Virus record (IMG/VR): IMGVR_UViG_2512047041_000009
Location: 1 to 37,224 of that record
DNA length: 37,224 nt
Reading direction: 5' to 3' (one strand)
Source of the DNA: a virus
Taxonomy: Duplodnaviria; Heunggongvirae; Uroviricota; Caudoviricetes
In this document: positions 15,001 to 24,000 of the stretch, one piece after another
How the letters are laid out: every line of letters begins with the position of its first letter
Position numbering within the stretch: the stretch's first letter is position 1
Program-made: the position numbers

Positions 15001-18000
15001 CTTCACATAACCCGGCAGCAACATCCATGAAAAACTGCTTCGCCTGCTTTTTCGCCTCAGCTTCGTAAAACTCCAGCGTGGCACCTTCAGTACGGTCAAG
15101 ACTAATCGCCACATTTGGCAACAACAGTGACGGATACCCACCAATTTCCAGTACCACAGTAACAGTAATCTTATCCGGGTAATTATTTATCCCTTTAACA
15201 ACCAGTTCGTATTTTTTCTTCATCGCTTTACTCTCCCCGCGCCGCCTTACGCCGGTCCTCTCTGATTTTGAAATACAGGTTAGTCAGGTACGTCAGCAGC
15301 CCAAACAGCAGACTCCCCAGCACGCCTATTGCCGCCCACTGAGACGGGGAAACCCTGTCCAGCAACTGCAGGAACCAGTAGCCCGTTCCCACCGCTGACG
15401 TGGTGTATGACACACCTGTTGTGATTTTTTCCATCTGGTACATACCCCGTCTCCCGTTATCCGGAAGCTCACAACAACAAGTGGGGCATCAGCTCACACC
15501 GACACCCCCTGCGCATGGTTACATCATCATTTCGCCGTCAGGCTGAGGCTCTTCACTACCGTCAGGCTGAGACCCGACGCCATCTGAAACAGTACTGTCA
15601 TCCGCAATGCCTTCCGGCTCCGGAACCGCTGGTACGCCCAGCAGCTCATCCAGAATGGCATCCACTTCTGCATCAAGACGCGCCTCAAGGTTCTGGCGGA
15701 GTTTCTGTTTCAGTGCGCTCAGGACTTCTTCAGAGCGCAGGACTTCCTTCACTGCCTCAGCAGTGACCAGGGATGTGATTTCTGACATGGGATTTTCTCG
15801 TTGAAAGGTGTTGTCAAGAAAGTGACTACGGAATGAGCGGATCTTCGGGTTTGCTTCCGGCTGACTGACTGGCGCTGATTCTCTCAGCGGCCCTTTTATC
15901 AATCTGCCTGCGCCAGAAATCGCGCACTGCCCTGTACCCACCCGAAAGAAGATACATAACACAGACTGCCGTACAGAAGTACAGCATCACCTGATGAATA
16001 AATGTCATAATTTCTTACCGTTATGGTTGACAATGAGAACTGTTTTCATTTAAAAAACCGATATACGAAAGCATCTTTTCTTTACATTCTCCATTGGGAT
16101 TACCTCCGCCAGCTTCCATTCCTGCCGCTGGCGGCCTTTTTTTATCATGCCGCGGCATCCGCGTTGTTCACTTCCACCTTCACACTGTCAATCAGCAGCG
16201 TATATGTCGCCGCCTTTGATATGCCTGTCAGTTGCAGTTTGTCCGCCGCCCCTGATGCCGGAGATTTCACCAGTGTGAACGGCGTCCCCCGTTTCTCATC
16301 CAGTACCGGCGTCACCTGAATGCTGTTGTTTCCGGCAAACTCAAAAGCCAGTGTGTGCCATCCGTTATCAAAGACCCCGAACGTATCCAGCTTCGCATTC
16401 GGCTTCTTGTGGTGCATCGCGTTCAGGTTCGTCGCATCCGTCTGCAGGAAGAAGGACATCAGCATGTCGTTGCCTTCCTCTGCCAGCGTCACTCCCTCCG
16501 GCAGGGACGACAACTGCCAGTAAATGCCCAGGGCAAACTGATTCGGCACCAGTGAACCCGGCAACTTAAACCGTACGCTCACACGTCCCCCCTTCTTCAG
16601 TAACTCCACTCCCTGTCCGGCTGCATCATGCTCCAGAAACCAGATGTGGTTTTCCGGTTTATTCAGTTGCAGGGCCTTACCTCCCGTAGCCCCCGCATCA
16701 CTGACCACCGCTTCAGCAATGTTTTTGTTAACATTGTCTCCGCTCGCCGGTTTGTGATAATAGCGCCAGCCCTGTGATGCCAGGTCTTCGCCGGACGCCA
16801 GCAGACTCATCAGGGTTCGGTTACTGACCGGGGCTTCCGGCTCTCTCTCCGTACCTTCACCGGAAGGTCCGGTGGGCTTCACCGTATCAGGCTGTTTTCC
16901 GGTAATGAATTCAGCGTTTCTCCCGGCATGCACAAGAATCGCCGTTGCCAGACGGTCGGAAATAATCCCACGACGTGCCCATGATCCAAAATGCGTTTTA
17001 CGGTCAGCCGTCGTCCAGGTTTTGGCGTCCGTTCGACCACCGGCTCCGTAATACCCAATATCCGCAACATCCGGATCTTCTGACGGCTCGTTGGTACCCA
17101 CATTTCGCCCGTTTTCATCCGTCATAAACGGCACAAAGAAGATTTTTTTTGCGGATTTCGTCTTGTATGCACCATACACCGCATCGTATTGCGAAGAATA
17201 AGTCTGCTTCCAGTAGTAGGTCGTGTCGCCACAAATCCAGGGAACTGATGACGGAGAGCCCCCGAGACACTGACCTCCGAATTCCGACAGGTCAGAACGA
17301 TATTTTTCCACCATGGAATCAAACAGCCCCGGCTGAGTGGCGTATGCACCCTGTTTCAAATCAAACTCGCCCTGCATCCAGACCACTGCAAGCAGAATAT
17401 TTTTAGGGTTGGCCTTCAGTGCGGCCTGAGTACGGGTAAGCAGGTCCTTGTACAGTGGCTTATCTACACCCCAGCGTGCCGAGGTCTCGCTTGCGCCGGT
17501 GGATTCGCTGAAGGTACCTTCATCGCCCGCCAAAAATGCAGAACCACCACGGCAGCACGGAACCAGAAGAATACCGGCATTCGCCGGAATAAACGGCAAC
17601 AATTTCTTCGCGATATGTAATCCCTGCCCCACGCATCCATACTGAGCTGCGCTGGCTTTCGGGTGTGAAAACTTACTCAAATCCTGAACATCATGCAGGC
17701 AGTGGTCCGCAGGAATAATGTCATTGTAGTTACAGGACGCACCACCCGGCGTGACAGTGCTGCGACGCGCCAGCTGTTTAATACGCGGGTCCGGACGGTC
17801 ATATGTCTCCGGCAGCGGAAGCCCTTCACCATACGCCATACCGTTTGACTGCCCGGCCAGGGCAACAACAAAGTAATACTCCGGGTTGCTGGTGGTGCTG
17901 ATAACTGCGCCTTCTCCATCCGACGGCTTCACCACCACAGGTGTGGTGACATCACCTTCCGCCGCAATGGCCTGCATCAGGGTATAAGGCGTGATGGCCA

Positions 18001-21000: not shown

Positions 21001-24000
21001 GCGTGGGTGCAACCTATGCTAAATCAGATCGCACTGACGGTCAGGTCGCCTATGGTAAGAGCAAATTCAATGCCTCCGGCAAAAATGCGGAAGTATGGGC
21101 TGCAGGCCTGAAATATGATGCGAACAATATCTATCTGGCTACCACATATTCTGAAACTCAGAATATGACCGTTTTTGGTAATAACCATATTGCAAACAAA
21201 GCACAAAACTTTGAAGCAGTAGCACAATATCAGTTTGACTTCGGTCTGCGCCCATCTGTTGCTTACCTTCAGTCAAAAGGTAAAGACCTTGGTGTTCATG
21301 GTGACCGAGACTTAGTCAAGTATGTCGATGTCGGTGCTACTTACTACTTTAATAAAAACATGTCCACTTTTGTTGATTACAAAATCAACTTAATTGACGA
21401 TAGTAAGTTTACCAAAACAGCTGGTATTGATACCGACGACATCGTCGCTGTAGGTCTGGTTTATCAGTTCTAATCTGACTTACGAAAAAGATATGTTGCG
21501 GGAGGCTTTGCCTCCGCAACATATAAGTGGAGCCCTCAAGCCACTTCCTTTAGAAGCACTACCTTGCTTCTTACTATATAAACCTTCTGTTATATATTAC
21601 CCTTTATTTGGGGGCGTTTCCACGCCCCATTTTTAATAACTTTTAGTAAACAATTGCATATCAATTAGAATTATTAGCAACGATATCCATATCTAACCGG
21701 ATATCTAATGCCATTAACATCCCTTCAATTATGCCCTCAGCCTTCTGTAACCTTTTCCCGATATAACCATCCGAGCAGCAATGCTTACTTGCCAGTGACA
21801 TGAATGTCATACCACATACATAATAATCTACTAATAAATCGTGTAAATCGCTGTTGTTCTTTTTCAGACGGGCCATGCACCCGCAAATGATCATCGCGTC
21901 ATCGTCACAACATTGCGGGCGAGATTTTACTTTTGAAGGAATTAATCCCTTAAAACCGGCAGCAATGGACGACCAGGTCACATCCTCATGATTATTTGCC
22001 GCCCATGCTCCCCAGCGTTCGAGAACCATCTGAATATCACGCATCAACTTTCTCCACAAAATCAGGACAGCACACCAATCGCCAGCGCGCGATCGATAAA
22101 ACGAAATATCAGCTCCAGTTGGGAACCATACTTCTCTTCAAATGCCACGGTATCCGCATGCAGTCCGTCATGGTGTTTTCTGCACAAAGGCAACACAAAA
22201 AGGTCATGCGCTTTTGTACCCATTCCACCCTGACCATGACCAATCAGGTGATGAGGATCGTCGGCTGGCTTACCACAACATGCACACGGCTGCGTCTTAA
22301 CCCAGCGCGTGTACTTTTCATTAACCCAGCGACGACGTTTGGGGCGTAACATAAAAGACTCCGGCGACTCCGGATCCACTTTCAGCGCCAGCACCTTTTT
22401 CGCCTTATCCCGGATGATGCTGGTGGCAGGAACCGAAGGCACAAGGTCACTTTCCCGGGTGACAGACGGCACAACAGGCTTCGGTAATCTCAGTGCCTTA
22501 CGGGCTGCACTTTCCGGTAAGGCATCCGCCAGGTCATTACGAACCAGCCACCAGCACAGTTCCGGCATTGTCACAACGTGGCTGTCATCAAAACCGAGAT
22601 CACGACGGACTACGGACAACACCCAGCGGGCACAGTTATCCGTTGCCATTGATTCCAGACGTTCCGTGAACTGATCGCGAAGCAGGTTATCGCAGTGCCA
22701 GCACAGACGGATTGCGCCCGGCGCGTGTCGCATTGTGGTCATGTTCTCGCTGTGCCATCCGGAATGAGGCCACTGGCAGCCTTTTTCACGAAGTAACCAG
22801 CTCTCAAGGCATTCCACGCCACCAGCACGACGGATCACCGCCTCATGGCGGAACACGGCCCGAACGGCAGGATCATCCGCCAGCGGTTGTGATGCTGCCG
22901 GAACGGCACCACTGGCAAAAGATGAATAACGTTCCGGCTCAGGCTCCAGCAGGACACGCCCCTGCATAAACAGGGGCATCAGCTCTGAACCGGGTCTGAA
23001 CAAGACGATCCCCATACGCGGGGCAATTTCAGGGGTCAGCAGTGCTCTCACGGTCACCTCAGCGAACGGTATTGCATGAACGCAGGAGAAAAAAATTCAG
23101 CCATCACGCAGTAAACTCCTTCACCAGCGTTTCAAACTGGCTTACCTGTCCTTCCAGTTCCGCCACGCAATCCACCAGCTCATCCACCGCCTTTTGTGTG
23201 CGGTGTTTTGCCTGCAGCAGATCACGAAGCGCCGGAGTAAGCTGCTTGCGGAGCGTATCTTTTTTCACGCTCGTTTTTTCCATCTGTTCAGCACAACGAA
23301 GCATCTCCTGCGCCTGCCGACGAAGTTGTTCCGGTGAAACAGTGATTGTTCTGTTGTTCAAAATAAACGCTCCGTTTTACTGCCCGACATGCGGTTATTG
23401 CTGTATCTGCGCGGATTGCCCGGCGTCATGGGTGTGGAAAGAACCCGGGCACTCTCCTGGTCCACAGGCAGAAAATGTCCGTTATGAAAACGCCGGTAAA
23501 TGGTCCCGAGTGTGCCATTACGCTGTTTCGTGATGTTGATTTCTGCTATGCCTCTGGCCTGTGTATCCGGGTTATACACCTCATCCCTGTAAAGCATCAG
23601 AATGATGTCGGCATCAGCCTCTATTTCCCCGGAGTTTTTCAGGTCTGAGTTCATGGGACGTTTATTGGGTCTGGATTCCACGCCTCGGGAGAGCTGGCTC
23701 AGAGCAATCAGCGGGAAACCGCCGGATTTTGCCAGGCTTTTAAGTCCCTTTGAGATTTCCCCCACAGCAAGGTCGTGACGCCCCGTGCTGCGGGTTTTAA
23801 TCAGACCGAGGTAATCGACCACCACCAGCGCCGTTTCCGGGTGTTTCATCCGGTGGTGCTTCGTGGTTGCACATATCTCATCAATGGTCAGGTTTGCCTG
23901 ATCCACCATCCAGATATTACGCCCCGTCATTCGTCCCACGCCCTGCGAGAAACGCGCCCAGTCTTCATCTTCAAAACGGGCAACAGACTTAAGACGGGAT

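Follow-up and report, generated by a model that had tools for sequence, protein, structure and literature searches.

What kind of prophage keeps the late gene order of a Shiga toxin (Stx) phage without the toxin, and what lies where the toxin genes would be? The question is raised by IMG/VR record IMGVR_UViG_2512047041_000009, a sequence of 37,224 nucleotides assigned to the Caudoviricetes, which was analyzed over its whole length and is called the window here. Its late region (16145 to 22044) reads on the minus strand, with a porin gene on the plus strand, and runs from the antiterminator gene Q through the opposite-strand porin gene, a methylase remnant, tRNA-Ile2, tRNA-Arg, a gene for a TolA-like lipoprotein and a gene for a NanS-p-type esterase to the holin gene. 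Gene calls combined open reading frame (ORF) listing, ARAGORN, Pfam and Rfam with Prokaryotic Genome Annotation Pipeline (PGAP) annotation from RefSeq relatives, and every gene in the order that a sequence-only reading had proposed from Q to holin was located where that reading had put it by ORF listing, ARAGORN and Pfam. The region is very probably the late-regulatory and accessory-cargo part of a mosaic, stx-negative Escherichia coli lambdoid prophage, in which a control unit of the DLP12/434 type is joined to a unit of the Stx-phage type. The first module comprises Q (QuuD), the porin, and a candidate late promoter (PR') and terminator (tR'); the second comprises the methylase remnant, the putative tRNA promoter pT, the tRNA genes ileZ and argN, a cargo slot, a predicted STnc100/AsxR pair of small RNAs (sRNAs), nanS-p, DUF1378, DUF826 and the lysis genes.

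Alignment against Stx phages reveals synteny with their late regions. The stretch with the methylase remnant and the tRNAs (19898 to 19379) is 94-96% identical to the Stx2 phages 933W and Stx2_12E129_yecE, the stretch with the sRNA block and the start of nanS-p (18552 to 18050) is 76-79% identical to the same two phages, and in both of them stx2AB lies exactly between these aligned blocks. On the 3' side of the slot, nanS-p, DUF1378, DUF826 and the holin gene are collinear with Stx2 phages at 76-81% nucleotide identity; the order in Stx2_12E129_yecE (LC567842.1) is DUF968, Q, a hypothetical gene, an intact methylase gene, three tRNAs, stx2AB, nanS-p, DUF1378, DUF826 and holin. Outside the late region, positions 1 to 16144 (lysis, head and tail) are covered to 87-89% at ∼93.5% identity by Stx1a, Stx2a and Stx2c phages, and the early region is covered to 52-65% at 86-92% identity by Stx1a and Stx2a phages. 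The collinear segments, a structural half ∼93% identical and the absence of any stx remnant bear out the proposal that the window is an stx-negative relative of the Stx phages. Nor do its Q and esterase fall into unrelated families: Q belongs to PF06530 and the esterase has the NanS-p architecture.

The control module is of a different type. At megablast sensitivity, 55 phage records (434, 4A7 and ev017 among them) match the block from Q through the porin and an AT-rich spacer to the terminator (22044 to 19941). No record in this set bears a Stx-converting name, and the module is therefore DLP12/434-like rather than Stx-like. The Stx-phage backbone seen in the sequence-only reading thus holds from the methylase remnant to the lysis genes, which are collinear with Stx2 phages, but not for the Q-porin-promoter unit. 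Its comparison of the porin and methylase remnant between Q and the tRNAs with nmpC in DLP12 stands: Q (21661 to 22044, minus strand; 127 residues from the PGAP start; PF06530, E = 7.7e-54, 181 bits against a cut-off of 26) is 96% identical to QuuD of K-12 DLP12, the module is collinear, and the OmpC/NmpC-type porin gene (20391 to 21473, plus strand; PF00267, E = 8e-151) is intact and occupies the position of nmpC in DLP12 and of the porin gene in phages 4A7 and 434. It is a lysogenic-conversion gene sitting between Q and the candidate late promoter. At the protein level, Q is 51% identical to Q of Stx2_12E129_yecE. A preprint assigns PF06530 to the Q21/Q933W family, yet prints the same accession for Q82; because Q21 and Q82 share one accession there, the family placement of Q rests on its distant match to the solved Q21 chains 6P18 and 6JNX (phmmer, E = 4e-8). 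This relationship to Q21 makes the RNA-exit-channel 'nozzle' mechanism its likely mode of action.

Where the late promoter lies is less obvious. A PR' beside Q, as in 933W, was considered and rejected: the Q-porin spacer (21474 to 21660) contains two back-to-back terminators, the promoter scan finds no minus-strand promoter-like site in it, and a conserved TATAAT-terminator pair stands 3' of the porin. The first of the spacer's hairpins (21485 to 21524, minus strand), a bulged stem of 14-15 bp 3' of Q followed by CTTTTT, was read from the sequence, since the terminator scanner tolerates no bulges, and probably closes the early operon; the second (21611 to 21628, plus strand; terminator scan), an intrinsic-terminator-like hairpin followed by ATTTTT, is placed to end the porin transcript. 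Downstream of the porin, the best promoter match of the region (20154 to 20182, minus strand; ATGACA, a 17-nt spacer and TATAAT, 11/12) is the candidate PR', and a strong intrinsic terminator detected by the terminator scan ∼200 nt further on (19943 to 19964, minus strand; an 8-bp stem with 5 GC pairs and a T run) is the candidate tR'. A conserved -10-like TAATTT at about +4 to +9 may serve as a sigma-dependent pause element. DLP12 and the isolated phage 4A7 show no variation in the TATAAT, the TAATTT, the AATTTAAAC motif or the terminator, and in both the promoter-terminator pair lies immediately 5' of the holin gene; a three-way alignment with K-12 DLP12 and 4A7 from porin to terminator has a mean column identity of 89%, and homology to both stops ∼5 nt beyond the terminator stem. 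PR' and tR' are thus likely to lie downstream of the porin, not beside Q.

Several observations temper this placement. Only position and conservation speak for PR', the pause element and Q dependence, the -35 of the candidate PR' varies among relatives, and the leader RNA (20147 to 19930) is no more stable than shuffled sequence (z = -0.42). A literature search for a published phage 82 or QuuD promoter sequence that could anchor PR' found none. As a separate observation, the last 56-77 nt of the DLP12-type block, including the candidate tR' (19941 to 20018, minus strand), are shared at 90-96% identity with the Shigella phages SfII and SfIV and the cytolethal distending toxin (CDT)-converting phage cdtI, and this position appears to be a recurrent module boundary.

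For promoter use and Q dependence we infer the following scheme. In the lysogen, a short transcript would start at PR' (about 20147) and be halted at tR', while separate promoters would drive the porin gene, the two sRNAs and, in the case of pT, the tRNAs. Upon induction, Q would be produced from the early operon and load onto RNA polymerase paused just 3' of PR', rendering the polymerase terminator-resistant. Neither tR' nor the sRNA terminators and hairpins would then stop transcription, which would continue into the TolA-like gene and nanS-p and on to the genes for lysis and structure.

The Stx-phage-type module opens with the 3' remnant of an N6/N4 DNA methylase gene (19602 to 19898, minus strand; 297 of 1059 bp), which matches only positions 135-220 of the 221 of PF01555. 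PGAP calls it a pseudogene 'missing N-terminus', and it shares 95% identity with the 3' end of the methylase gene that Stx2_12E129_yecE carries at full length. Next comes pT (19571 to 19599, minus strand), a putative promoter with TTGCAG, a 17-nt spacer, TATTAT and a GC-rich discriminator; it falls below the promoter scanner's threshold and differs by one spacer base from the site annotated as 'pT; putative tRNA promoter' in 933W. The tRNA with anticodon CAT (19486 to 19561, minus strand; Rfam tRNA, 72.5 bits) is called Met by ARAGORN and tRNA-Ile/ileZ by PGAP and the 933W record; it is tRNA-Ile2, and all columns of its alignment with 933W ileZ are invariant. The tRNA-Arg with anticodon TCG (19400 to 19476, minus strand; ARAGORN; Rfam tRNA, 55.1 bits) is argN by alignment with 933W. 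Behind it, alignment to 933W and to a prophage of E. coli VR50 (NZ_CP011134.1) identifies the degraded 5' half, ∼42 nt, of a third tRNA gene, argO (tRNA-Arg UCU; 19345 to 19386, minus strand): identity with VR50 ends at 19379, and weaker similarity to 933W argO continues to 19345. ARAGORN calls no tRNA at this remnant, the argO 3' half and the argO terminator are gone from the window, and the terminator scan recognizes no terminator between pT and the TolA-like gene. By read-through that the loss of the argO terminator would permit, the TolA-like gene may also be transcribed from pT in the lysogen.

The slot itself is filled by an 817-bp cargo cassette (18562 to 19378, minus strand), delimited by blastn breakpoints against VR50, 933W and Stx2_12E129, which substitutes for the argO 3' half and terminator and has a GC content of 41%, against 51% for the whole window. 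Its right end at 18562 is the right boundary of the slot in VR50 and lies within ∼10 bp of that boundary in the two Stx2 phages. In VR50, the two flanks meet to within about 4 nt with nothing between them; in 933W, a 1335 bp stx2AB cassette stands at the same point. Three slot alleles, empty (VR50), stx2AB and tolA-like, are thus found at one junction, and the combination of deviant GC with presence/absence polymorphism at a fixed site is a moron trait. Since the right junction is essentially the same in all three states, the locus provides a clean three-allele example of a single recombination slot. A tblastn search with Stx2A and Stx2B of 933W against the whole window returned a best E of 1.1 and no match in 18107 to 19400 (Stx1 being covered only via its similarity to Stx2), consistent with a toxin-free slot. 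Within the cassette, the best promoter-like site scores 9/12 (19281 to 19252), and no terminator precedes that of STnc100.

The same argN-tolA junction recurs in complete E. coli genomes, ∼120 in number, where at least three different Q genes precede it, and in these relatives the cassette again directly adjoins the start of the sRNA block. Two relatives show other arrangements. STEC2017-197 (NZ_CP075663.1, 5768 to 8633) carries four STnc100-like blocks, a second methylase fragment and a helix-turn-helix gene between the tolA-like gene and nanS-p, and its sRNA block appears to have been multiplied. In phage mEp460_ev081 (4001 to 4190 and 4340 to 4768), an STnc100-like block lies upstream of the TolA-like gene, not downstream, so entry of the gene into the late slot has taken place both 5' and 3' of the sRNA block.

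As a whole, the 5.9-kb late region is 100% identical in 3 RefSeq E. coli chromosomes and matches at full length with at least 97.8% identity in 14 E. coli chromosomes. In E. coli AR_0013, it lies within a complete-looking lambdoid prophage adjoining mlrA/yehV; this prophage has genes for integrase, repressor, replication, lysis, head and tail and is 99.9% identical to the window across 37 kb. Since the exact sequence is already present in several RefSeq genomes, the region holds little that is new in principle: the element is of a familiar kind, though its mosaic combination is new, and Stx-negative lambdoid prophages with a Stx-phage-like backbone and nanS-p are already well documented.

Did the prophage descend directly from a Stx-converting phage, exchanging stxAB, the argO 3' half and its terminator for the TolA-like cassette? 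Such a toxin loss is doubtful, though parts of the locus fit it well. The right junction of the cassette coincides with that of the stx2AB cassettes; the left junction falls inside argO, and as the Stx phages and VR50 have three tRNAs, the three-tRNA state is ancestral and that of the window derived; and the remainder of the prophage shares 86-94% identity with Stx1a, Stx2a and Stx2c phages. The yehV/mlrA site at which the AR_0013 prophage lies is a known Stx1-phage attachment site. Yet the tblastn search with Stx2A and Stx2B found no stx remnant, and the empty site of VR50, with flanks 97-100% identical, makes the filling of an empty slot equally parsimonious. Moreover, a junction present in ∼120 genomes with at least three Q types points to an old, independently circulating module, and no Stx-named phage record carries the Q-porin unit or the TolA-like gene. 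These data are compatible with either direction, replacement of stx or filling of an empty site.

What the cassette encodes is the one real open lead of the locus: a TolA-domain lipoprotein that is common in E. coli prophages, nearly absent from phage isolates and apparently unstudied. The predicted lipoprotein (18693 to 19121, minus strand; 142 residues; PF06519, E = 3.8e-23) consists of a lipoprotein-type signal (residues 1-20, LTTG|C), a linker of ∼33 residues with no match (21-53) and a TolA domain III (54-142), which aligns end to end and ungapped with residues 333-421 of E. coli TolA (E = 8e-27, ∼56% identity) and matches the TolA domain III structures 1S62, 3QDP and 1TOL (E = 8e-27). 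Both disulfide cysteines and the LDFKP of strand beta3 (TolA L417-P421) are kept, Gly19 and Cys20 of the lipobox are invariant across the family, and Thr at +2 suggests sorting to the outer membrane. E. coli TolA shares this globular C-terminal domain, but its membrane anchor (domain I) and long helical domain II are both missing here and are replaced by the lipoprotein signal and the short linker. The PGAP name 'TolA' is therefore misleading: the protein cannot couple to TolQR and is thus not a TolA orthologue. It is assigned to phrog_5772, of unknown function. Of 5426 complete E. coli genomes, 896 (16.5%, about one in six) carry the gene, whereas of 50,697 phage records only mEp460_ev081 does, and there too it stands between Q and holin; its codons are rich in ATA and AGA/AGG, like those of stx2A. 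In its 5' region (19178 to 19299, minus strand), CCGGAT/ATCCGG occurs four times as two nested inverted-repeat pairs (19178 to 19184 with 19206 to 19212, and 19233 to 19239 with 19293 to 19299), which could be a regulator binding site.

The prophage encodes a second predicted lipoprotein of similar design. The 109-residue product of 12202 to 12528 (minus strand; MKMKRNLPLIILLSSLVMG|C) has a TonB C-terminal domain (PF03544, E = 1.3e-14); its gene lies just after the Rz-type lysis gene, and its PHROGs family is labeled 'Rz-like spanin'. The prophage therefore has lipoprotein-anchored C-terminal domains of both TolA and TonB.

In 1993, Levengood-Freyermuth and colleagues reportedly found that cells with unanchored TolA domain III in the periplasm become leaky, tolerate colicins and resist Ff phages. 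For the TolA-like protein, predicted to be anchored in the outer membrane, the most likely role is that of a periplasmic competitor or decoy for the ligands of TolA domain III, namely the TolB N-terminus, the g3p of filamentous phages and group A colicins. In TolA itself, beta3 of this domain is the strand-addition binding site for the TolB N-terminus, g3p-N1 and colicin N (PMC4339652; PMC7391070). A fuller version of the idea can be put forward only tentatively: the protein would be an envelope decoy housed in the Shiga toxin slot, the TonB-domain lipoprotein might be a second one, and both would sit on the inner face of the outer membrane, intercepting g3p and group A colicins (TolA) or TonB-box ligands (TonB), or tuning Tol-Pal and TonB signaling. 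If true, this would be an undescribed class of prophage superinfection-exclusion or colicin-tolerance factor whose TolA-like member occurs in about one in six complete E. coli genomes. Several points count against a decoy role. The lipobox is atypical, with T at position -3, and some family members have frameshifted C-termini without beta3. The AlphaFold model is poor (mean predicted local distance difference test score, pLDDT, of 55 from a 9-sequence alignment, with the linker below 50), and Foldseek ranks TolA domain III first with template modeling (TM) scores of only 0.3-0.46, adding nothing beyond the sequence identity. PADLOC returned no match for the TolA-like protein, nor for the TonB_C-like protein, the esterase or the porin, and a literature search for TolA-like proteins of prophages and phages retrieved nothing relevant and no published test.

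A late, envelope-weakening role is a serious rival to the decoy, though on balance unlikely. As an accessory of lysis and release, the protein would titrate the TolB N-terminus off host TolA and phenocopy a tol mutant, with a weaker outer membrane, more vesiculation and easier release of phage and periplasm. The gene's position suits such a role: it is read with the late strand and is flanked by tR' on one side and the lysis genes on the other, its best promoter of its own is only the 9/12 site 130 nt upstream, and the mEp460_ev081 copy is likewise located between Q and holin. The TolB-binding strand beta3 is conserved, mutations in beta3 of TolA give a leaky tol phenotype (PMC4339652), and a review of Tol-Pal suggests that modulating the interactions of TolB with Pal or TolA could regulate the production of outer-membrane vesicles (PMC7391070). 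The prophage, however, already has a holin, a signal-arrest-release (SAR)-type lysozyme and Rz-type lysis proteins; the weak affinity of TolA for TolB (dissociation constant 40-200 uM; PMC7391070) means that much protein would be needed; and the lost argO terminator permits read-through from the tRNA promoter, a putatively constitutive one, in line with expression in the lysogen.

For late expression, the structural genes raise a difficulty. The large terminase is split into overlapping ORFs (9619 to 10608 and 8946 to 9752, minus strand), as is the portal (5369 to 6733 and 4149 to 5372, minus strand), and in the near-identical prophage of AR_0013 PGAP annotates frameshifts in both genes. Because of these splits, the prophage may be unable to package DNA, and expression of its late operon may be rare or absent. 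That the whole region is decaying, with an inherited gene order, lost Q-dependent late expression, and a TolA-like ORF, methylase and tRNA fragments that are functionless debris, is nonetheless improbable: the truncated methylase, argO and YdfR, the split or frameshifted terminase and portal, and the cryptic state of DLP12, which has the same control module, all fit decay, but Q, the porin, both tRNAs, the TolA-like gene, nanS-p, holin and lysozyme are intact with full-length family matches, the TolA-like family keeps 58-94% identity with invariant lipobox and Cys residues across 896 of 5426 genomes, and inducible Stx2a phages, too, normally have short methylase remnants 5' of their tRNAs (PMC10462455).

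Around the cassette, the sequence-only reading had described two long gaps with palindromes and orphan hairpins. Inverted repeats and terminator-like hairpins are indeed present in both gaps (278 bp, 19122 to 19399, and 586 bp, 18107 to 18692), but the gaps are occupied by known sRNA genes and a tRNA remnant. The 278-bp gap opens with the argO remnant and a hairpin of 11-bp arms (91% complementary). The 586-bp gap contains a full-length sRNA of the prophage STnc100 family (18315 to 18523, minus strand; RF02076, 132.1 bits against a gathering score of 47, model positions 1-206) with its own terminator (18326 to 18345, minus strand; terminator scan). Convergent with it is a full-length AsxR-like anti-sRNA (18259 to 18311, plus strand; RF02703), a borderline match whose 63.0 bits equal the gathering score exactly; ∼46 of its 53 nt are identical to the consensus, and its terminator (18289 to 18306; terminator scan) is conserved. 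About 100 nt 5' of nanS-p, a hairpin followed by TCTTTTT (18209 to 18231, minus strand) was read from the sequence; its columns are invariant in the window, VR50, 933W and Stx2_12E129, and it overlaps what may be the -35 of the AsxR-like promoter, which reads from the opposite strand. Weaker Rfam matches in the region (Trp/Leu leaders, OmrA-B and others) were discarded, all being well below their gathering scores.

Downstream of the sRNAs, the predicted sialate O-acetylesterase of NanS-p type (16145 to 18106, minus strand; 653 residues) combines DUF1737, SASA and DUF6645 (Pfam). It is 60% identical over its full length (669 aligned columns) to L0105/NanS-p of 933W, its GQSN motif is conserved, and its gene has about 80% nucleotide identity to nanS-p of Stx2 phages. 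A 2026 preprint shows that phage phi24B has a capsid decoration formed by the DUF1737 domain of a NanS-p homologue, and the esterase is therefore not to be assumed pure cargo. It is followed by genes for a small DUF1378 protein (15826 to 16008, minus strand; PF07125, E = 2e-36), at the same position as in Stx2_12E129 and P13374, and a DUF826 protein (15519 to 15788, minus strand, PGAP coordinates from the AR_0013 prophage; PF05696, E = 1.4e-36). The lysis cassette starts with a class II (P21 S-type) holin (15228 to 15443, minus strand; PF04971, E = 9e-33). Between the truncated YdfR gene and the SAR-type lysozyme, a 161-residue ORF with no Pfam match (14235 to 14720, minus strand) looks like a second accessory slot in this cassette, where Stx2_12E129 has other genes. 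In the portal/head region, a 162-bp tandem repeat (about 4615 to 5147) differs in copy number between the window and AR_0013. The early region carries a C4 antisense RNA (27968 to 28055, minus strand; Rfam, 75 bits) and, adjoining it, an isrK Hfq-binding RNA (28077 to 28153, minus strand; 62 bits), a pair that resembles the antirepressor-control module of P1/P7 and Gifsy-type prophages.

Among known systems, the convergent sRNAs have published counterparts. AsxR was mapped 282 bp 3' of stx2AB, antisense, among several convergent sRNA pairs in the lambdoid moron site (Tree et al. 2014; PMC4104026), and STnc100/PasD sRNAs flank prophage esterase genes (bioRxiv 10.64898/2026.05.13.724894). The position and convergent arrangement of the AsxR-like RNA agree with the former: as with AsxR/AgvB and STnc100/PasD, a convergent pair occupies the moron site downstream of the candidate PR' and directly precedes the esterase gene. 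In O157 the target of AsxR is FnrS; the copy in the window differs from the consensus at about 7 of 53 positions and is a predicted regulator only, and the TTGACA that lies 5' of STnc100 in VR50 and 933W is not conserved in the window.

The Stx2 phages 933W and Stx2_12E129_yecE share with the window the order (DUF968)-Q-methylase or remnant-pT-ileZ-argN-[slot]-STnc100/AsxR-nanS-p-DUF1378-DUF826-holin, and the long-tailed Stx1a, Stx2a and Stx2c phages share its lysis, head and tail genes at ∼93% identity. They differ in the slot, where the Stx2 phages carry stxAB with argO and its terminator and the window, lacking these, has the gene for the TolA domain III lipoprotein. They also differ in the control unit: the Q/PR' unit of the Stx phages is of another type, and the window's Q and candidate PR' are of the DLP12/434 type with a porin between them, although the Pfam family PF06530 is common to both.

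The reverse holds for DLP12 (quuD-nmpC-essD), 434, 4A7, ev017 and PhiR49_1, which resemble the window in their QuuD-type Q, opposite-strand porin, AT-rich spacer, invariant TATAAT and the same terminator. In this group the holin follows ∼140 nt after the terminator, whereas the window has ∼4.5 kb of Stx-phage-type cargo there (methylase remnant, tRNAs, tolA-like gene, sRNAs, nanS-p, DUF1378 and DUF826); nmpC of K-12 and 434 carries the insertion sequence IS5, whereas the window's porin gene is intact. That a DLP12/434-type Q-porin-PR' unit can join Stx-type cargo bears on how toxin expression could change when Q modules are swapped. The empty-site sister is the VR50-type prophage, which has the same two flanks, Q-porin-methylase remnant-tRNA (100%) and sRNA-nanS-p (97%), and which, besides the shared ileZ and argN, retains argO and its terminator, an empty slot and a frameshifted nanS-p, in each of which the window differs.

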